60,109 bases of DNA from Ignavibacteriota bacterium (GCA_963776275.1 CAVZMI010000037.1:1-60109); one strand, 5' to 3'. Shown: positions 14,711 to 22,795, counted from the first letter of the stretch. Notes: a model not told the origin generated them from the sequence alone. Translations and numbers: made by a program.

Positions 14711-15031
14711 TCAAGATCGTTTCCTCCTTGTCTTTTTGCCGTTTTCGTTTATGGTCGTTGAATAATCAGACTCTCGAGAGTCTCTCTTACATACATAACA
14801 GATGCCAAAAAAGTCGACTCTATGTAAGAAAACGCTGCGCTTATATTTTCGTTCAATATATCGGTCTCTAATCCACCCTTCGACGATCTCAAGATCAAGA
14901 ATCGAATGGCATCGAGTACAGATAAAATGCTGGTAGTTTTCAAGCTGTGCATCATAACGCGTCCGAAAGTCTCCAATGTGAAGTTCGCGGACAATACCCT
15001 GAGCGCTCAAGAGCCGCAGATTCCCTCTCAT
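14711..15031 (-). pseudogene. Fur/PerR-family regulator lacking most of the N-terminal DNA-binding domain
   Basis: NLRLLSAQGIV (end of the winged HTH), RYD, HFICTRC and FFGICYVC (two CxxC). No in-frame upstream HTH was recognisable. Confidence 0.65.
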
Positions 15032-15121
15032 AAATAACAGAATTAAATACGTGTGAAGTTCCCTTTGCAGGGAATGAATTTAAAAAAAGTCTAATATGGG
15101 AAATCCGAGCTGTTATATTAC

Positions 15122-15150
15122 TTGTTTTTCGGAAGTGTAAGTAATATATT
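15122..15150 (+). promoter_or_regulatory. Promoter for tRNA-Ser(CGA)
   Basis: TTGTTT-N17-TATATT, ending 18 nt before the tRNA. Confidence 0.55.
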
Positions 15151-15168
15151 TATATGTTCTTTTTCAAT

Positions 15169-15258
15169 GGAGGGGTGCTAGAGTGGTCGATTAGGCCGGT
15201 CTCGAAAACCGGTGTACTCTTCTGAGTACCCAGGGTTCGAATCCCTGCCCCTCCGCCA
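15169..15258 (+). tRNA. tRNA-Ser(CGA)
   Basis: GGAGGGG/CCCCTCC acceptor; anticodon arm CCGGT-CTCGAAA-ACCGG; long variable arm; GGTTCGAATCC; GCCA end. Confidence 0.96.
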
Positions 15259-15533
15259 AACTACGCCAAGGCTTCGTTTGGCAGGCCCTCTTTATCAGCC
15301 TGACTGACGAAGCTCCGGGGAGGAGCGCAGTCCAGTCGCCAAACTACGCCAAGGCTTCGTTTGGCAGGCCCTCTTTATCAGCCTGACTGACGAAGCTCCG
15401 GGAGGAGCGTAGTCAGTCGCCAAACTACGCCAAGGCTTCGTTTGGCAGGCCCTCTTTATCAGCCTGACTGACGAAGCTCCGGGAGGAGCGCAGTCAGTCG
15501 CCAAACTGCGCCAAGGCTTCATTTGGCTAGCCC
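15255..15533 (+). repeat. Tandem array of ~81-bp units (3 full, 1 partial), each with two oppositely oriented REP-like hairpins
   Basis: Units start at 15255, 15338, 15419 and 15500: GCCAAACTACGCCAAGGCTTCGTTTGGC...GACTGACGAAGCTCCGGGAGGAGCGTAGTCAGTC. Confidence 0.93.
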
Positions 15534-15645
15534 AAATCGACTTCCATTTCTTTAAAATGAAACAGAAATTTGTGTGGTACACTATCCCATTGTAACCTCT
15601 TTTCGTTCTTATTATTAAAGCCCCCTCAAGAGATAGGACCAAGTT

Positions 15646-15930
15646 ATGTTAATTTGGAAAGTATATATTCTGAGAAATATCAGAAAGGGATTTATTTATA
15701 TAGGATCAACGAATAATTTGGATCGACGAGTCTTAGAACATAATAATGGTGTTGTTCAGTCGACCAAAGCATATCGACCTTTGGAAATAGCGGCCTACGT
15801 TGCTGTGGAATCGGAATCAAAGGCAAGAAAATTGGAGAACTATTCTAAGACAGGATCTGGGAAAGCAATATTGAAAAAAAGAATTTTAACCGATGAAGTT
15901 CCGCGGTCTGTCCACCGAAGTTCGCTGTAG
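15646..15930 (+). CDS. Small stand-alone GIY-YIG nuclease (UPF0213/YhbQ-like)
   Basis: VYILR...IYIGSTNNLDRRVLEHN...STKAYRP...ARKLE..KTGSG. Confidence 0.9.
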   Translation: MLIWKVYILRNIRKGFIYIGSTNNLDRRVLEHNNGVVQSTKAYRPLEIAAYVAVESESKARKLENYSKTGSGKAILKKRILTDEVPRSVHRSSL

Positions 15931-16419
15931 GCGAACGTAGGTGGAAACGGGACGTAGTCGTCCCTGCCCCTCCGCCAAACTGCGCCAAGGCTTCGTTTGG
16001 CAAGCCCTATACGTCAAACCTTACTGACGAAGCTCCGAAGGAGCGTAGTCAGTCGCTTGACTGCGTCCCTCGAGAAACATGTGGGACTTCGTCAAGCAGG
16101 CCTGTACTATGAAAAGGGACGGGACTTTTTATTCAACGAATTTCATTACCTACCCGCTCTGACGAGCCCGTCTCTCCCGACTAGTCCACCGATTCATCCG
16201 CCGGTCTATCCGCCTTAGTGGAACGGAGGCGGAAGTTCCGTTTTTCGTAACGAAAGCGGAAGGTGAACGTAGTTGAACGTTTGGCAGCTTATTACCAGAG
16301 AAGCGTGATTGTATAAAATAAAGTCCGGATATCGATATAGCTTATATCGTTCGAAACTATGTCGTATACTGTAATGAGAACGGTTATGAAATATTGAGAA
16401 TAAGAGAGGCGGTAGTAGT

Positions 16420-16893
16420 TTATTTTTTCTTAATACCCGGTAAAATTTTTATAAGATTGGAAATATGTGATCTCCCGTTTAGATTCAAGTAGGGATTTGG
16501 TTCATAAGCGGTAGAGCCGAGAAAAATTACTGCAGCACTTTCATCTTCGGTATATGCAAGATCGCCGGATAAAGGCAATAATATCTTTTTAATTTTCAAT
16601 TGTTCGAATTCTTTTGAGTTGAATTCAATTTCATTGTCGAATACGATTTCCAGCGCTTCATCGTTCTTTCTTAATTCATCCATTCTCTCTTCATCAACGA
16701 CAAGACGTGCCACGTCGTTGATTCCTTCAATCAAATTCTTTAATTCATCAAATACTTTTTTTGAATTATCCTTATTGAGTTCGACAATTTCAGATTGTCC
16801 GCTATTGAAATATTTTATTTTCATTCGATGCGTATCCTCTACGCATGTTGTAGAACAGAAAAAAAGTAGTAATAGAATGGCCGATAATTTCAT
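16420..16893 (-). CDS. Hypothetical exported protein (possible lipoprotein)
   Basis: 157-aa ORF with a short hydrophobic N-terminus containing Cys; AT-rich. Confidence 0.7.
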   Translation of the reverse strand: MKLSAILLLLFFCSTTCVEDTHRMKIKYFNSGQSEIVELNKDNSKKVFDELKNLIEGINDVARLVVDEERMDELRKNDEALEIVFDNEIEFNSKEFEQLKIKKILLPLSGDLAYTEDESAAVIFLGSTAYEPNPYLNLNGRSHISNLIKILPGIKKK

Positions 16894-16903
16894 TAGTAAA
16901 GTA

Positions 16904-16931
16904 GAGGATGGGCTTTTGAAAGCCCATCCTC
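16904..16931. other. Perfect intergenic hairpin (terminator or processing stem)
   Basis: GAGGATGGGCTT-TTGA-AAGCCCATCCTC between two co-directional genes. Confidence 0.65.
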
Positions 16932-16940
16932 AAGTCTTTG

Positions 16941-19043
16941 TTATTGTATTGTAATATCGTCAAGTAAAATTGCGGTATCATAAATACTATCGCCAACATC
17001 TCCGGCGGCCAGTATAAGGGTAATACGTTTCCCTTTAAACGCACTCACATTGAATATATCCGTCTGCCAACCGGTCATGTATACATCACCTTTATCGAAG
17101 ACAATTCCGGGGGAAACATAAACAAGGTTACCCGGTTGCGGTACTTCGCCGGGCTGTTTGTTGAATTTTTGTGCACCGAAATCGGCAGCGATACCGTCAA
17201 TGTTTTTCCTTAATAATTCCGTTTCCGTTCCATTGGCTTCTTTGATTATTATCGTGTAATAATCCATGTAAGCAGAATTGATATATTCCAGGAACTCTTC
17301 CGACAAAAAATTCCATTTTACCGTCAATGAAGATTGATTTTGTCGGATGGTGAACGTTTGAAAGATTTTTCCGGTAGTGGTCGTATAACCGAGACCCGTA
17401 GAAATAATTCCCATATATTTCCCGCCCGTAGGACTTTGACCGCCGAGTTTGCTGATGACTCTTCCATCCCCCGATTTTGTCCAGCCTTGCAGTTTTCCGA
17501 ATTCAAAGTCTCCGTTGATTAAATCATCCGGATAGTGGATATCGTTTTCACCTTTCATCTGGAAGTTTGCATGATGCGAACCGGGGTCGCTGCCGGCCAT
17601 GAATGATTCGCCAGTAGTCTTCATATCTTTAGCCAGTCTTTTCACCAGTGTATCTGCATTTGTAACGCAGAAACCGCTGCTTACAATTTTATCATATCCG
17701 TAATATGTCTTTGCCCCTTTGCCGGTGAAAGCATTCTGCAAGTCGGCGCTTTTCGTGCTTTCGCATGAATTGTTCAAGATAACGCTGTTCGGGAAAGTGC
17801 CCGCAAGGTCGGAAATAAATGCTGCCTTTACGCCGTAAACGTTAGCTCTCGTTTTTACGCCGCCGTTATTAGCAATGACAATGTTTAGAGAAATTTTAAG
17901 TTTATTAGCTTTTAAAAGAGCCTTATAGGAATCCTTATAAGCAGTTGCGTTTGTATCAACAATTTCCCCGGTTAAAAATGAATTACCTCCGGAACCGTGC
18001 GTTGCCAATATGACCAACCCGTAGTTTGTCAAGTTATACAAAACGGCAACAGTAGCTTGTTGATTAATGTAGTAATCGATCTCATATTCGAAACCGGAAT
18101 TCTGTAAAATACTTTTTACACTAGGACCTTCATTGTTTGGTGCAAATGCCGCCTCGAAAGGAGCGTAGATCAAAACGTTCCTATTTCCGATTAATTTTGG
18201 ATCAGGTTCGCCGTTGTAGTTGGATACTTTCCTTATCATTTTACTGGGGGTTATTGTAGTTCCAACGGTCTGTCTGCTCAGAGGTATGCTCTTCTTTGAT
18301 CTTCTCTCATCATTACCGACAACTGAACCGCCGCGCGTTACACCACCAGTGGCGTCTTCAACCGATACGATTATTTCTCCGTTCAATCCGTTTTTGTATT
18401 GTATATCTATACTTGTGGATCCACTCATAGTTGCAGATTGAACTTCGGCTTTTGAGTTCAGCCATGTTGTTAATTGACTCATGGCATTATCGAGATTCTG
18501 AACGTTTCCGGCAAGGTATTGATCCAATTGTGTTGCTGCATTTGATTGAGTATTTAATACTTCGTTTAATTCTCCGGAAGTCAGTTGTGTATAGATTTTG
18601 ATCGACGCGGTTTCCGATTGTTTGTCGATTATTTGATCCCCACTCTTGATCTTTGCCTGAGCGGCAATGGTTATTGTTCCAGCTTGTGATTCATTAATAG
18701 TAACTTTACCGCTGTATATGTTGTCGCCAATTATTTCGTCGGCATTATAAAGATTGCCGTTATCAGCCAATTCTCCGATAGTGCCGCTCGAATTTCCGTT
18801 GGCATCCAGCTTTACGACCTGAACAAGCGAATCAGCAAGCTGAATTCCTGCCGGAACATTGAGGCGGATAATAAGAGTCGTGTAAGTATTTACAATAACT
18901 CCGGTAGGACTGATTGTTAGAGTACCAAGAGTGATGGTCTGATCATTGGGCCCTGTTGAACTTTCACTTTTTTTACAACTCTGGAAAAGAATTATAAAAG
19001 CAAAAAGAATTAAGAATATTCCTATTACTTTACCGATTTTCAT
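16941..19043 (-). CDS. 700-aa lipoprotein: choice-of-anchor X-like motif, clan CD peptidase-like central domain, C-terminal CBM-like domain
   Basis: FQS-C lipobox; LADNG...DNIYSG; LVILATHG and ILNNSCES; NGDFEFGKLQGW...LDDITI. Confidence 0.65.
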   Translation of the reverse strand: MKIGKVIGIFLILFAFIILFQSCKKSESSTGPNDQTITLGTLTISPTGVIVNTYTTLIIRLNVPAGIQLADSLVQVVKLDANGNSSGTIGELADNGNLYNADEIIGDNIYSGKVTINESQAGTITIAAQAKIKSGDQIIDKQSETASIKIYTQLTSGELNEVLNTQSNAATQLDQYLAGNVQNLDNAMSQLTTWLNSKAEVQSATMSGSTSIDIQYKNGLNGEIIVSVEDATGGVTRGGSVVGNDERRSKKSIPLSRQTVGTTITPSKMIRKVSNYNGEPDPKLIGNRNVLIYAPFEAAFAPNNEGPSVKSILQNSGFEYEIDYYINQQATVAVLYNLTNYGLVILATHGSGGNSFLTGEIVDTNATAYKDSYKALLKANKLKISLNIVIANNGGVKTRANVYGVKAAFISDLAGTFPNSVILNNSCESTKSADLQNAFTGKGAKTYYGYDKIVSSGFCVTNADTLVKRLAKDMKTTGESFMAGSDPGSHHANFQMKGENDIHYPDDLINGDFEFGKLQGWTKSGDGRVISKLGGQSPTGGKYMGIISTGLGYTTTTGKIFQTFTIRQNQSSLTVKWNFLSEEFLEYINSAYMDYYTIIIKEANGTETELLRKNIDGIAADFGAQKFNKQPGEVPQPGNLVYVSPGIVFDKGDVYMTGWQTDIFNVSAFKGKRITLILAAGDVGDSIYDTAILLDDITIQ

Positions 19044-19156
19044 TGCACCCTCCTCTTAGATTTAGTAATTCGACAATAATTCACGATATTGTTTAGTTTA
19101 TTTACCTAAAAAATATTTGAAAGATTTTTTCAATCCTCCAGGAAATCGAAAATATA

Positions 19157-19534
19157 TTATTTTTGTCTACGAGCCAGGACAGCTTGCACGCGTGCTATTA
19201 AATCGTTCGGACTGAACGGTTTTATAATGTAATCCTCGGCTCCTCGTGCCATTCCCTCATCAATTTCGTGTTGAAAACCTTTTGCTGTAAGCATGATGAT
19301 GGGTATGTTTTTTGTATCTTCATCTTTCCTGAGAATATCAAAAACTTCGTATCCATTCAGGTATGGCATCATCACATCCAGAAGGATGAGATCGGGATGC
19401 AGTGTCTGTGTAAGCTCAAGCGCTTTCTTTCCGTCGTCTGCAGGTATGACCGTATATCCTGCATCTCTCAACTTGAATTTGATGAGAGTCATGATATGAA
19501 CTTCATCTTCTGCGATAAGGATTGTAGTTGCCAT
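19157..19534 (-). CDS. Single-domain response regulator
   Basis: ILIAEDE, DLILLDVMMP, IIMLTA and YIIKPF. Confidence 0.93.
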   Translation of the reverse strand: MATTILIAEDEVHIMTLIKFKLRDAGYTVIPADDGKKALELTQTLHPDLILLDVMMPYLNGYEVFDILRKDEDTKNIPIIMLTAKGFQHEIDEGMARGAEDYIIKPFSPNDLIARVQAVLARRQK

Positions 19535-19542
19535 ATAATATA

Positions 19543-19830
19543 TTATCGGAGAAGATTCTCAATAACTTTAATGAGTTTATTTGTTGTATCCCGTACTCCT
19601 TCCCAGTATTCGGCCCTTGCCTCTTCTTCTAATTGTATGCCAAGTTTTGATATTTCGGGAAAACCGAACATTGCGCCGCTCCCCTTAAGGGTATGGCCAA
19701 AAATGGCAATATTGTTGGCCTCGCGGTTTTTTATTTTTGAATCGAGAGAATTTAATTGATTCAACATATCACGAAGAAAATCCTTAGTGAGCTGTCGAAG
19801 AAACTCATCTTCATTGACAACATCAGTCAT
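19543..19830 (-). CDS. Stand-alone Hpt phosphotransfer protein
   Basis: GHTLKGSGAMFGF...LE motif. Confidence 0.9.
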   Translation of the reverse strand: MTDVVNEDEFLRQLTKDFLRDMLNQLNSLDSKIKNREANNIAIFGHTLKGSGAMFGFPEISKLGIQLEEEARAEYWEGVRDTTNKLIKVIENLLR

Positions 19831-19836
19831 AGTAAA

Positions 19837-20210
19837 TCACGATGGTCCAAGCAGCGATTCAATTTTATTACGAATCATTTCTTCTGTAACAGGTTTTGTG
19901 ATAAAATCATCCGCTCCTACATTTATTGCCCGCGACCGAAACTCGTCGCCACTCAACGTCGTTACCATTATAATTTTGGCAGTATTGGCCCCGAGAGCTT
20001 CCGGAAACGCTCGATGAATTCAAATCCATCCATTTCCGGCATCATTGCATCGACCAGTACCACATCCGGTTGTTCAGTCGTAACCTGCTGGAGCCCCTCC
20101 CACCCATTTGTGGCTACAATAGCATCGTAACCAGCTTTTTGGACATAGAATTTTAATAACTGGACAATCTGTGGTATGTCGTCGATGATCAGTACTTTGC
20201 GCTTGGGCAT
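19837..20210 (-). CDS. Single-domain response regulator (apparent -1 indel in a G-run at ~19990)
   Basis: VLIIDD and DVVLVDAMMP; adding one G restores KIIMVT...GADDFITKP to TGA at 19837-19839. Confidence 0.85.
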
Positions 20211-20268
20211 AAGCTATTATTGTCTTATCGAAATGATACTACGAAAAAGTACAAGAAAAAGCAAGGAA

Positions 20269-20297
20269 TTGCTTTTCCTGATGAGAGTTAGTATATT
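20269..20297 (+). promoter_or_regulatory. Promoter upstream of the GIY-YIG/tRNA-Ser(GGA) duplication
   Basis: TTGCTT-N17-TATATT. Confidence 0.5.
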
Positions 20298-20349
20298 TAT
20301 GAAAATTATTCACTGAAAAACAACTTTTTCACAGGCTAATTGAAATATT

Positions 20350-20524
20350 TTAGAAGCTTAATGAACATTATCGCCCGAAAACACCATTCACTAGTACTAG
20401 AATCCCCTGAGTATTGATACATCAGGAAGAATTTACAGCGATATCTGAAGCTCGTAAAGGAGAAAGGTTCTTGAAAAGTGGTGCGGGTCGTTTCTGGCTT
20501 GATAAATTCTTAAAGAAAAGATAG
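20350..20524 (+). pseudogene. Degenerate GIY-YIG fragment (first copy)
   Basis: High similarity to 20910-21081 (TTGATACATCAGGAAGAATTTACA...AAGGTTCTTGAAAAGTGGTGCGGG); in-frame TGA; 5' part lost. Confidence 0.8.
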
Positions 20525-20536
20525 TCCGTATTAAAT

Positions 20537-20604
20537 GGAGAGATGCAGGAGTGTCCCGTCCCGTTTACATCGGGACGGGATGGCACGCCTGGAGAGCGTG
20601 TGTA
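20537..20604 (+). pseudogene. tRNA-Ser(GGA) 5' fragment with a palindrome in the D-loop
   Basis: GGAGAGATGCAGGAGTG-[TCCCGTCCCG-N7-CGGGACGGGA]-TGGCACGC-CTGGAGA-GCGTG; no adjacent T-arm. Confidence 0.7.
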
Positions 20605-20637
20605 TAAATAAATTGAGTGGATATTTCAAGAAAAACT

Positions 20638-20815
20638 GGAAGGGTGCGAGAGCGGTCTGAGCCGGAGGCTCATACGCCTCTGGCGTAGAATCGGCTCGCC
20701 TGGAAAGCGAGTTGGCGTCACAAGCGTCACGTGGGTTCTCAGCCACGCATTATGAATCGGTGAGGCTGATCCGCCTCCAAAGCTCAATCCAACGCGGCGG
20801 AGAATCCCACCCTCC
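20638..20815 (+). pseudogene. tRNA-Ser(GGA) copy interrupted by 30-nt (D-loop) and 63-nt (T-loop) inserts
   Basis: Matches 21195-21282 once inserts 20658-20687 and 20739-20801 are removed; the acceptor 3' strand is decayed. Confidence 0.85.
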
Positions 20816-20835
20816 TATTAAATTTAAATAAACCT

Positions 20836-21054
20836 ATGCACTATGTCTATGTATTGTGGAGTGAAAAGCTCAAAAAACGATATGTTGGTTCGGCAGGTAA
20901 TGTCTCTCAACGGCTCTATCAACATAATCATGGAAAAACACAATTCACTAGTCGCGGAATCCCCTGGGTTTTGATACATCAGGAAGAATTTACAACGACA
21001 TCCGAAGCACGTAAAAGAGAAAGGTTCTTGAAGAGTGGTGCGGGCCGTTTTTGA
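20836..21054 (+). CDS. Small GIY-YIG nuclease, possibly truncated by a Trp-to-TGA change ~9 codons from the end
   Basis: YVYVLWS...RYVGS...RLYQHN...FT....PW...EARKRERFLKSGAGR. The upstream copy has TGG where this one has TGA. Confidence 0.88.
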   Translation: MHYVYVLWSEKLKKRYVGSAGNVSQRLYQHNHGKTQFTSRGIPWVLIHQEEFTTTSEARKRERFLKSGAGRF

Positions 21055-21093
21055 CTTGATAAAATCTTAAAGAAAAGATAGCGAGTATTAAAC

Positions 21094-21160
21094 GGAGAGA
21101 TGCAGGAGTGTCCCGTCCCGTTTACATCGGGACGGGATGGTACGCCTGGAGAGCGTGTGA
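21094..21160 (+). pseudogene. tRNA-Ser(GGA) 5' fragment with D-loop palindrome (second copy)
   Basis: Near-identical to 20537-20604; offset 557 nt. Confidence 0.7.
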
Positions 21161-21194
21161 ATTAATAAACTAAGAGGATATTTCAAGAAAAACT

Positions 21195-21282
21195 GGAAGG
21201 GTGCGAGAGCGGTCGAATCGGCTCGCCTGGAAAGCGAGTTGGCGTCACAAGCGTCACGTGGGTTCAAATCCCACCCCTTCCG
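21195..21282 (+). tRNA. tRNA-Ser(GGA), intact
   Basis: GGAAGGG/CCCTTCC acceptor; anticodon arm CTCGC-CTGGAAA-GCGAG; variable arm; T-arm GTGGG-TTCAAAT-CCCAC. Confidence 0.92.
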
Positions 21283-21303
21283 CAATAGCGGATGAATATT
21301 AAC

Positions 21304-21392
21304 CGTGGGTTCTCAGCCACGCATTATAAATCGGTGAGGCTGATCCGCCTCCATCGCTAAATCCAACGCGGCGGAGAATCCCACTCTCTCCG
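21304..21392 (+). pseudogene. tRNA 3' fragment (T-arm and acceptor) with 63-nt T-loop insert
   Basis: GTGGGTTC-[21313-21375]-GAATCCCAC-TCTCTCC-G. TCTCTCC is complementary to GGAGAGA at 21094. Confidence 0.75.
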
Positions 21393-21454
21393 CTATGAAA
21401 AAGATTTTCATTGTTCCTTTTCTTACTGATCTCTTTTAAAAACGAAGGTAATAG

Positions 21455-22795
21455 ATGGTCTGGAATATCATGAGATTATCGCCGTATCATAGACATATCA
21501 AATCATTCAGATTTTTTATCTTTATTTGGATGCTCTTGTTTGGACTTCATTCTTCACTGTTTGCTGAAAAACCGACTGTCTATATCCTACGAATCGACGG
21601 AGCGATCAATCCTGCTGCGGCCGACTATATTCACTCAGCAATCGAAAATGCTTCAAAATCCGGCGCAGAAGCAATTCTGATCCAACTGAATACACCCGGT
21701 GGATTGTTGAAATCAACCCGCGTAATTGTTACAGATATTCTCACTTCTTCGATTCCGATTATTGTATATGTTGCACCAAGCGGTTCCCAGGCTGCTTCCG
21801 CCGGTGTTTTTGTAACACTTGCAGCACATGTTGCTGTCATGGCTCCGGGAACAAATATTGGTGCCGCCCATCCGGTCGGTGGTCAAGGAGAACAACCGGA
21901 TTCAATTATGATGGGAAAAGTTACAAACGACGCTGCTGCGTTTATCCGCACTATCGCTGAAAAACGGCATCGTAATGTCGCCTGGGCCGAGGACGCCGTT
22001 CGAAAAAGTCTTTCAATCACAGAAACCGAGGCATTTCAGAAAAACATCATCGACCTGATAGCCCGCGACCGAAAATCATTGCTGGACTCGGTCAATGGCC
22101 GTGAAATCGATGTGAACGGCCATGAACATGTTCTCCAAACAGCAGGAGCAGTCGAAATTATACATGAGATGAATTGGAGGCAGAAATTTCTGGATCTCCT
22201 CTCGAATCCAAACTTTGCATACATATTTTTGATGCTGGGATTCTACGGACTCTTATTTGAACTCTACAACCCCGGATCGATCTTTCCAGGAATCGTAGGT
22301 GTGATTAGTCTGATCTTGGCCTTTTATTCACTTCATACATTACCTGTAAATTACGCCGGACTCGGACTTATAATATTTTCCATCATTCTATTTATAGCTG
22401 AAATCAAAATTGTAAGCCACGGCCTTCTGGCAATTGGAGGAATAATATCGCTTATTCTTGGATCGCTAATGCTTATTGAAACGGAGCCTGGTATGGAGTT
22501 TCTTTCGATCTCATGGCAAGTTCTTATTCCGACTATCATCTTTACAGTTCTCTTTTTCCTGTTTATCATTGGTTTGGGCTTGAGAGCTCAACTTCGTAAA
22601 CCGACAACGGGAGCAGAGGGTCTTATCGGCGAAATCGGTACAGTCATGACACGCCTCGACCCTGACGGCAGGATACAAATTCATGGTGAACTCTGGTTTG
22701 CTCGAACTGATTCTCCGCCTATTGGTGAAGGGGCTCAAGTAAAGGTCACGGCCGTAAAAGATCTTGTATTAACGGTTGTTCCACAGCAACACTAA
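21455..22795 (+). CDS. nfeD: NfeD-family membrane-bound serine protease (ClpP class)
   Basis: LNTPGG, AASAG, MAPGTNIGAAHP; transmembrane block; C-terminal OB fold (GELWFA). Confidence 0.93.
   Translation: MVWNIMRLSPYHRHIKSFRFFIFIWMLLFGLHSSLFAEKPTVYILRIDGAINPAAADYIHSAIENASKSGAEAILIQLNTPGGLLKSTRVIVTDILTSSIPIIVYVAPSGSQAASAGVFVTLAAHVAVMAPGTNIGAAHPVGGQGEQPDSIMMGKVTNDAAAFIRTIAEKRHRNVAWAEDAVRKSLSITETEAFQKNIIDLIARDRKSLLDSVNGREIDVNGHEHVLQTAGAVEIIHEMNWRQKFLDLLSNPNFAYIFLMLGFYGLLFELYNPGSIFPGIVGVISLILAFYSLHTLPVNYAGLGLIIFSIILFIAEIKIVSHGLLAIGGIISLILGSLMLIETEPGMEFLSISWQVLIPTIIFTVLFFLFIIGLGLRAQLRKPTTGAEGLIGEIGTVMTRLDPDGRIQIHGELWFARTDSPPIGEGAQVKVTAVKDLVLTVVPQQH

Follow-up and report, generated by a model that had tools for sequence, protein, structure and literature searches.

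A putative selfish GIY-YIG nuclease-hairpin cassette lodged in tRNA genes of an Ignavibacteriota genome

The window analyzed here is a stretch of 60,109 nucleotides (nt) that makes up contig C37 (GCA_963776275.1 CAVZMI010000037.1:1-60109) of an Ignavibacteriota bacterium, a metagenome-assembled genome of 3.70 Mb in 38 contigs with 5.3% contamination (designated G000). Two loci in this window, A at a tRNA-Ser(CGA) gene and B at a tRNA-Ser(GGA) gene, share one architecture: an intact tRNA-Ser, a GIY-YIG nuclease gene of 72 to 94 amino acids (aa), same-strand tRNA pieces, and significant hairpins at each. On balance, both loci seem to be resident copies of a selfish cassette that lodges in tRNA genes and pairs a nuclease with hairpins in the manner of the Ssn proteins described below. 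The parts of the cassette are a single-domain GIY-YIG gene, one or more GC-rich hairpins, and a spare tRNA copy that is partial or, at locus B, complete; with such a spare copy, a functional tRNA is retained in every case. Across the phylum, the same layout turns up next to many kinds of tRNA gene, always on the tRNA strand. Junctions and inserts fall at tRNA loops, hairpins replace whole arms of redundant tRNA copies, and cassette units have been gained and lost in tandem.

An initial annotation of this DNA had described two loci of common layout with divergent GIY-YIG proteins, hairpins, and no integrase. That observation stands, because the layouts of both loci, the hairpin folds, the divergence of the proteins, the unrelated nature of the intervening genes, and the integrase-free contig were all confirmed. 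The annotated span (15169 to 21392) held good at its two ends, where the loci lie, and not for the interval from 16420 to 20210, which carries unrelated genes: a 157-aa open reading frame (ORF), a 700-aa ORF, two response regulators, and an Hpt protein. The nearest named protein relatives came from metagenome genomes of Bacteroidota, Ignavibacteriales, and Melioribacteraceae. Comparisons were made with a same-genus relative (G001), a same-family relative (G002), and further genomes, among them G009, G011, G014, G019, and G050.

Architecture and history of the two tRNA-Ser loci

Locus A opens with an intact tRNA-Ser(CGA) gene at 15169 to 15258 (ARAGORN; Rfam tRNA, 54.1 bits), which, like every feature of the two loci, lies on the plus strand. 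An 81-nt tandem array (15254 to 15527; 3.4 copies with 96% matches at period 81 in Tandem Repeats Finder; repeat families D2/D3) begins within the last bases of the tRNA, and its unit is a set of hairpins ending in a CGCCA that resembles a tRNA 3′ end. An AT-rich spacer of 118 nt separates the array from GIY-YIG gene A (15646 to 15930; 94 aa, single domain; PF01541 E value, 2.1e−14). The last codons of gene A run into nested hairpins (15910 to 15964), which occupy the T-arm position of a duplicated tRNA end. Next come a 17-nt direct copy of the tRNA-Ser(CGA) 3′ end (15961 to 15977; also D2/D3) and, from 15969 to about 16300, a diverged fourth repeat unit (15969 to 16049; a 67% copy) with a hairpin-rich tail. 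As single-stranded DNA, the hairpin segments of loci A and B folded better than shuffled sequences in six of six cases (z, −2.3 to −5.0). Values at locus A were −3.7 for the 81-nt array, −4.5 for the nested hairpins (15900 to 15978), and −2.4 for 15978 to 16125.

The equivalent of locus A in G001 has other sequence in place of the hairpin-rich tail, and 81-nt units flank gene A on both sides. A further relative was found in public run X1, a peat metagenome available as contigs (0.20 of sampled words), which is approximately 90 to 99% identical and not the same strain. A joint in X1 that runs from 15559 to 16301 and skips gene A was considered as an empty site and rejected. It is most simply an alignment between the repeat units that flank gene A in that strain, as in G001, and the gene itself is found on another contig of comparable depth.

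Locus B consists of two units that stem from a 557-bp direct duplication (20356 to 20655 versus 20913 to 21212; 88% identity). Upstream lies a conserved, putatively promoter-like element of the tRNA-Ser(GGA) locus (20255 to 20300), recognized by alignment with G002 and G001. Unit 1 begins with a 5′-truncated GIY remnant (20351 to 20521; profile positions 27 to 83, with one TGA and one TAG; repeat D1), followed by copy 1 of the 5′ half of an ancestral-type tRNA-Ser(GGA) (20537 to 20602; inverted repeat I1), identified from its sequence and the tRNAs of relatives, in which a 27-nt hairpin (20554 to 20580) has replaced the D-loop. It also holds a broken copy of the working-type tRNA-Ser(GGA) (20638 to 20812; repeats D4/D5), for which BLAST aligned tRNA positions 1 to 20 and 21 to 71 at 100% identity. 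A double mini-hairpin insert lies in the D-loop of this copy (20658 to 20687) and a 65-nt double-hairpin insert in its T-loop (20739 to 20803), and insert 1 folded with a z of −4.2.

Unit 2 carries GIY-YIG gene B (20836 to 21054; 72 aa; PF01541 E value, 8.5e−15), which stops at a TGA where G001 has TGG; readthrough would give 81 aa, to 21081. Copy 2 of the ancestral-type 5′ half (21094 to 21159; z, −5.0) comprises the acceptor strand, the D-arm with a 27-nt hairpin in the D-loop (21111 to 21137), and the anticodon arm. Nested at the former variable-arm position of the ancestral gene is the intact working tRNA-Ser(GGA) (21195 to 21283; ARAGORN; Rfam, 53.8 bits), which comparison of tRNA types assigned to a different sequence type. 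Past unit 2, a 3′ piece of the ancestral-type tRNA (21304 to 21392; repeat D4; z, −2.3) has a 65-nt double-hairpin insert (21313 to 21377) exactly within its T-loop.

The outer broken tRNA halves at locus B are of the sequence type of the intact tRNA-Ser(GGA) in G002 and G009, and the same D-arm and anticodon stem are found in G011 and G019. The working inner tRNA of G000 and G001 matches the tRNA-Ser(CGA) of G050 in its acceptor stem, D-arm, and T-arm and that of G002 in its D-arm. Judged from these sequence comparisons, the ancestral tRNA-Ser(GGA) is broken and has been functionally replaced by the nested tRNA of another sequence type. The ancestral gene was disabled as its D-loop gave way to a hairpin, its T-loop was interrupted by an insert, and other sequence took the place of its variable arm, with the nested tRNA taking over; afterwards the unit was duplicated and its first copy decayed, an order of events that we infer from the present layout.

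In the family-level relative G002, the tRNA-Ser(GGA) site is empty: an orthologous response regulator (67% identity) and the conserved upstream element are followed approximately 10 nt on by an intact tRNA, with no GIY gene. In G000 and G001 the cassettes lie between this element and the tRNA, and in G000 the element is now approximately 900 bp from the working tRNA. As the element is split from the tRNA in these two genomes and not in G002, the point of entry of the cassettes was downstream of the presumed promoter and ahead of the tRNA. Rearrangement has affected the filled sites, however, and no clean single-event junction was seen. Locus B has one unit in G001 and in the peat-metagenome relative versus two in G000, and the G001 copy, which lacks the 5′ end of the gene, is a dead copy.

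That the duplications are artifacts of assembling a metagenome-derived genome is hardly credible. The 38 contigs and 5.3% contamination of the assembly would fit such an origin, as would the breaks of the X1 contigs within the 81-nt array; however, at locus B the units share only 88% identity and are structurally different, and the same layouts recur in an independent genome of the genus as well as in dozens of others.

Proteins A and B scored 54.0 and 55.3 bits against PF01541 (cutoff, 22.6) and share 31 to 32% identity, in keeping with the divergence first reported. Five residues (Y7, Y18, R28, H32, and E64) were invariant in nine of nine aligned GIY-YIG proteins of G000; following work on I-TevI and UvrC, we take the two Tyr, the Arg, the His, and the Glu to be catalytic. 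The tRNA-linked proteins of this family (72 to 97 aa) matched PF01541 alone, plus an overlapping weak match to T5orf172. They clustered apart by BLASTP (E values of 1e−7 to 1e−18 among themselves) and carried a distinct C-terminal motif, K-S/T-G-x-G-R/K. Best matches among solved structures were BH0048 (1zg2; E value, 2.5e−12), EF2693 (1ywl; 3.3e−11), and SLX1 (4e−6). Ratios of nonsynonymous to synonymous substitution rates (dN/dS) between G000 and G001 were 0.13 for gene A, 0.11 for the gene linked to tRNA-Met, and 0.15 for the shared part of gene B, so the nuclease genes are kept by purifying selection. A scan of viral contigs with protein A found no relative.

Cassettes at other tRNA genes and in related genomes

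The initial annotation had tied the system to tRNA-Ser genes, a restriction that has to be given up, as Met and Pro loci were found in G000 and many tRNA types in its relatives. PF01541 had 15 matches in G000, of which 13 were small; eight small GIY-YIG genes, in five loci, lie 26 to 1,087 bp from a same-strand tRNA (Ser-CGA, Ser-GGA, Pro-TGG, Pro-GGG, or Met). The tRNA-Met locus is made up of four tandem 349-bp units. In its tRNA copies a 15-nt palindrome stands in for the D-loop, and the final copy has its T-arm replaced as well; pseudo-tRNA-Met hairpin inserts number four in G001, some of them nested, versus two in G000. An insert divides the T-loop precisely into its two halves in the Pro-TGG, Pro-GGG, and Ser-GGA pieces. 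Those of Pro-GGG and Ser-GGA are members of a single family, which BLAST also placed beside tRNA-Met and tRNA-Thr fragments. This family stood in a tRNA-fragment context at every inspected site (on C15, C21, and C5), and a BLAST match at C6:30530 fell outside the inspected set. Overall, 11 of the 46 tRNA genes of G000 have same-strand fragments of themselves (≥18 nt) within 1 kb.

Four further regions of G000 (C18:93425-93928, C5:58890-59600, C26:44660-45000, and C29:2400-2760) hold pseudo-tRNA arrays with no nuclease gene. One array consists of five 86-bp units of the 5′ part of tRNA-Gly(GCC) with a hairpin, and in another an intact tRNA-Thr is nested within the stem of a pseudo-tRNA-Thr. The others repeat the 3′ ends of tRNA-Lys and tRNA-Met, with hairpin-filled T-arms.

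Relatives were surveyed with a profile built from the five tRNA-linked proteins, at E values up to 1e−5 for genomes of the order and up to 1e−12 for a sample of the phylum. The GIY subfamily was present in 20 of the 21 genomes of the order and in 35 of the 61 of the phylum sample (both counts include G000), at 0 to 14 matches per genome among relatives. The comparison used the best-matching loci of each genome, 28 plus 25 outside G000, out of roughly 200 matches listed, and ARAGORN found a tRNA in 21/28 and 22/25 of them. With the duplicate L044 and G000's own two loci excluded, a tRNA lay within 500 bp of the GIY match in 42 of 52 loci and was on the same strand in all 42, versus approximately 2% expected by chance (arithmetic from 46 tRNAs in 3.7 Mb). 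An enrichment of tRNA near homologues, put forward at the outset as a check, is thus clear. Gene order varied: the tRNA ended 5 to 100 bp before the start codon, or the gene ended 0 to 80 bp before the first base of the tRNA, even overlapping it. In nearly all linked loci, fragments of the tRNA also stood beyond the opposite end of the gene, and their limits fell in the D-loop, anticodon loop, variable region, or T-loop. No tRNA was found at ten loci, namely one with a masked tRNA-Met (L021), five of a terminal inverted repeat (TIR) type (L022, L023, L028, L042, and L043), three of an outgroup clade (L036, L069, and L074), and L073. Many GIY copies in relatives were truncated or contained in-frame stops, and many matches lay at contig ends.

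A tree was built from 62 proteins after removal of L044 and of sequences with internal stops or fewer than 65 profile positions and merging of six identical rows; with 81 columns, it was weakly resolved. Nuclease clades followed the amino acid type of the tRNA (20 label changes versus a shuffled mean of 39.4; 0 of 200 shuffles were as low), an association that shows clustering and not cause, because related genomes share labels. Ser clades mixed the isoacceptors CGA, GCU, UGA, and GGA. Many loci had a TCC...GGA-type hairpin 1 to 40 nt past the stop codon, and a given hairpin variant was common within nuclease clades across families, with separate types in the Met, Arg, and Gly clades. From the sequences, this sharing is the pattern that would be expected of cognate nuclease-hairpin pairs, and it is confounded with tRNA type.

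The TIR-type genes form a sister clade with no tRNA nearby (L007:813-1121, which is G000:C22:10312-10620, together with L022, L023, L028, L042, and L043). Each is bounded by a 13-bp perfect TIR that is conserved in five genomes of four families. Three of the six copies lie within tyrosine-recombinase genes, and gene-less miniature copies of approximately 60 to 110 nt occur nearby. This clade looks like a minimal inverted-repeat element whose sole gene encodes a GIY-YIG nuclease.

Islands and prophages that integrate at tRNA genes also duplicate part of the tRNA, keep an intact gene, and break it at the anticodon and T-loops, which are reportedly classic crossover sites of integrases. It is nonetheless highly improbable that the loci described here are relics of such integration, with the tRNA pieces as old attL/attR duplicates and the GIY gene as passive cargo. 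The breakpoints at the anticodon and T-loops would agree with it, and G000 does contain one classical case: on C29 a tyrosine integrase (88713 to 89411) lies 175 bp from a tRNA-Met, and a 50-nt copy of the 3′ part of that tRNA is found 86 kb away (C29:2704-2753). This is probably a classical integrated island, unlike the mini cassettes. The seven matches in G000 to the integrase profile PF00589 were all off contig C37, in agreement with the integrase-free description given at first; none was found on that contig or within 50 kb of any of the five GIY-tRNA loci, serine recombinases not being searched for. Furthermore, the units measure only 350 to 560 bp and form tandem arrays, 5′-half duplications and D-loop breakpoints are common, tRNA arms are replaced rather than duplicated, and the same mini-gene recurs in 42 of 52 loci.

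Relation to Ssn and other known systems

The known system nearest to these cassettes is the Ssn family. Ssn proteins, such as SsnA of Neisseria meningitidis, are single-domain GIY-YIG nucleases of approximately 94 aa (CDD cd10448) whose genes are flanked by NTS/SRM hairpin repeats (Chenal et al. 2025, PMC11893778). As described in the main text of that paper, the proteins bind their hairpin in single-stranded DNA only and cut one strand upstream of it, cutting also occurs when the stem is formed by two separate strands, and SsnA modulates transformation in Neisseria. The authors remark on a layout like that of an insertion sequence (IS), and their main text reports no mobility and contains no occurrence of "tRNA" or "Bacteroid" (PMC11893778). 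To call the present system undescribed, as was done at first, was too strong, as hairpin-associated single-domain GIY-YIG nucleases of the Ssn family had been published in 2025. The nuclease-plus-hairpin principle has been known since 2025; in the literature searched, no description of tRNA-linked mini GIY-YIG cassettes was found, and a search on SsnA led to the Ssn paper alone.

Both systems have a single-domain GIY-YIG protein of about 72 to 97 aa, and in both, going by the published description of Ssn, GC-rich hairpin repeats that are also found elsewhere in the genome flank the gene in an IS-like hairpin-gene-hairpin layout. What sets the cassettes apart from Ssn genes as published is their place within tRNA genes, on the same strand as the tRNA, and the accompanying duplicate tRNA pieces, in which hairpins stand in for arms; their proteins also form their own cluster with the C-terminal motif given above. 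The hairpins that flank GIY-YIG genes here are of non-SRM sequence. In one genome of the same order (G015), both flanks of the outgroup-clade gene L036 (L036:1440-1790) nearly match the Neisseria NTS/dRS3 consensus hairpins, on the strand opposite to the gene. By virtue of these near-canonical NTS hairpins, this order of Bacteroidota does contain a canonical Ssn-type locus.

Phage T4 SegB has a DNA-binding part beyond its catalytic domain. Unlike free-standing homing endonucleases of this type, which couple the catalytic domain to a region for binding a long double-stranded site, the proteins studied here are the catalytic domain alone (72 to 97 aa), and they scored 18 to 25 bits against TIGR01453 (cutoff, 56). 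SegB resembles them as a free-standing GIY-YIG enzyme tied to tRNA genes, with a selfish logic of inheritance in both cases, and its recognition site, as far as described, includes a conserved tRNA T-arm motif (PMC2330249). The T-loop is a main breakpoint and insertion point in the cassettes. However, SegB cuts double-stranded DNA, and SegB homing leaves no hairpin-plugged tRNA fragments.

As in the repetitive extragenic palindrome (REP)/bacterial interspersed mosaic element systems of RAYT enzymes and in IS200/IS605 elements, small hairpin repeats flank a small enzyme gene, and action on single-stranded hairpins is proposed. The enzyme here is a GIY-YIG hydrolase rather than an HUH tyrosine transesterase like RAYT, and no Y1 transposase gene is present at these loci; we know of no tie between REPs and tRNA genes. 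The minimal GIY-YIG domain is the same as that of UPF0213 proteins (BH0048, EF2693, and YhbQ type) and SLX1. The UPF0213-like genes of G000 (C8:55568-55786, C22:3672-3887, and C26:29335-29550; L005, L006, and L008), unlike those of the cassettes, are not tRNA linked and encode another C-terminal helix motif. They sit in a different repeat family, built of approximately 55-nt units closed by a 7-bp stem and of a second unit; certain of these repeat units begin like the 5′ end of a class II tRNA.

Competing explanations and proposed mechanism

Several observations weigh against a selfish, tRNA-lodged, Ssn-like cassette. Tandem arrays of pseudo-tRNAs and hairpins occur at several tRNA genes without any GIY gene, and the nine matches to Y1_Tnp in G000 represent potential hairpin movers. 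The published SRM motif had 6 sites in G000 versus 17 in a shuffled genome, with none within 1 kb of a tRNA, and the SRM pattern had no site in 207,201 nt of loci, although this strict pattern also missed the near-canonical NTS of L036. With L036 as a proxy for Ssn homology, BLASTP E values were 1e−7 for protein A and 5e−6 for protein B, and the NTS-flanked homologue was no nearer to the tRNA-linked proteins (1e−5 to 1e−8) than UPF0213-like proteins were. The five tRNA-linked paralogues of G000 are only 28 to 41% identical, so no recent jump between its tRNA loci is seen. The match between clade and tRNA type, together with the low dN/dS, would also agree with ancient vertical inheritance and a function for the host; the selection data are just as compatible with domestication. 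Lastly, joining DNA is beyond a GIY-YIG hydrolase, which leaves the insertion step without a known enzyme.

The arrays and the Y1 matches raise the question of whether the hairpins are related to the nuclease at all. They could instead be REP-like elements moved by Y1 enzymes (RAYT/IS200 type), or RNA-level signals such as terminators, mRNA 3′ stabilizers, or mimics of RNase P/Z processing sites, that accumulate in redundant tRNA copies. Y1 matches were present in 17 of 21 relatives as well as in G000, Y1 genes lie within approximately 1.5 kb of two TIR-type GIY loci, and the position of hairpins just past GIY stop codons is that of a stabilizer. We nevertheless regard this explanation as improbable. 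All nine Y1_Tnp matches of G000 are on contigs other than that of the window, and G014, which is 100% complete, carries the cassette, hairpins, and tRNA pieces with no Y1/RAYT match, so the hairpins do not track RAYT alone; such tracking would have spoken against the initial proposal. Hairpin type is, moreover, common within nuclease clades across families, the T-loop insert family stood in tRNA-fragment contexts wherever it was inspected, and Ssn, as published, is a direct precedent for nuclease-hairpin pairs. At the RNA level, an Rfam search of 14900 to 21600 with E values up to 1 returned the two tRNAs plus chance-level matches, with no intron or other RNA family. Scans for sigma-70 promoters and terminators gave counts near shuffle levels, repeat units excepted. 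A reading of the hairpin inserts as RNA introns was dropped, as Rfam held no matching intron family and the archaeal splicing enzyme is, to our knowledge, not found in bacteria.

The selection data bring in a further explanation, that of a small single-strand DNA nuclease domesticated by the host and kept beside tRNA genes for the benefit of the cell. Such an enzyme might police incoming or recombining single-stranded DNA, like SsnA, or guard tRNA genes, into which integrating elements usually insert, using pseudo-tRNAs marked by hairpins as decoys or as sites of recognition. The dN/dS values of 0.11 to 0.15 favor it, as do the recurrence of a given nuclease clade beside a given tRNA type in different families of the phylum, the TIR-type relatives inside tyrosine-recombinase genes (3/6 loci), and the modulation of transformation by SsnA as published (PMC11893778). 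Against it stand the patchy distribution (35 of 61 phylum-sample genomes and 0 to 14 matches per genome among relatives), the many copies that are truncated or have in-frame stops, tandem arrays and dead copies such as that at locus B in G001, and insertions within other genes. Patchiness, decayed copies, arrays, and insertions in genes are traits of selfish DNA and thus count against domestication, which we consider unlikely, if less so than hairpins unrelated to the nuclease.

For the selfish cassette, a mechanism can be proposed by analogy with Ssn, in which the nick-and-repair spread suggested by the initial annotation stays hypothetical. The nuclease would bind its hairpin in single-stranded DNA and nick beside it. 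tRNA genes would offer folded single strands, exposed by heavy transcription, replication, or DNA uptake, together with a conserved target. Repair of the break by copying or template switching would spread hairpins, duplicate tRNA parts, and, more rarely, transfer the gene, and recombination between tRNA repeats would expand and collapse arrays. Selection would retain only those outcomes that leave one intact tRNA, and placement on the tRNA strand would let the tRNA promoter transcribe the nuclease gene.

A bolder extension is conceivable and should be read as tentative, namely that these loci belong to a phylum-spanning, possibly wider, class of minimal mobile DNA whose sole protein is a GIY-YIG single-strand nuclease of approximately 90 aa. 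It would exchange stem-closed modules where single-stranded tRNA genes fold into loops and would drive tRNA gene turnover, for example, the replacement at locus B, which would amount to a new form of transposition or homing without transposase, integrase, or intron. Such a module would be a hairpin, an entire tRNA with the acceptor stem as its closure, or the nuclease gene between 13-bp inverted repeats.

Should the nuclease-hairpin pairs behave as proposed, an overlooked minimal selfish element resides in the tRNA genes of many bacteria. A selfish cassette would, if real, explain pseudo-tRNA debris and tandem arrays of tRNA fragments; it breaks assemblies, as suggested by the many matches of relatives at contig ends, and it can swap one tRNA gene of a cell for another, as at locus B. 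It would also add genome change to the newly described role of Ssn enzymes in regulating transformation and provide dozens of natural nuclease-hairpin pairs of differing specificity, a resource that the Ssn authors, by their published account, have sought.

Among the neighboring genes, the 700-aa ORF between the loci (16941 to 19043, minus strand) has a signal-peptide-like start and no Pfam match above cutoff; its sole match was weak and below cutoff, to an ADP-ribosyltransferase family (16.7 versus 23.4 bits). A response-regulator gene at 19840 to 20210 (minus strand) appears to be frameshifted, with an 80-aa ORF covering receiver positions 1 to 68 and the rest in another frame. The X1 relative has one extra G after 19986, and the break is either a real frameshift or an assembly error. 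Directly upstream of the promoter region of tRNA-Ser(CGA), a 106-aa ORF (14711 to 15031, minus strand) matched the Fur family in its C-terminal half alone (positions 49 to 110 of the 121 in the profile) and is possibly a truncated regulator.

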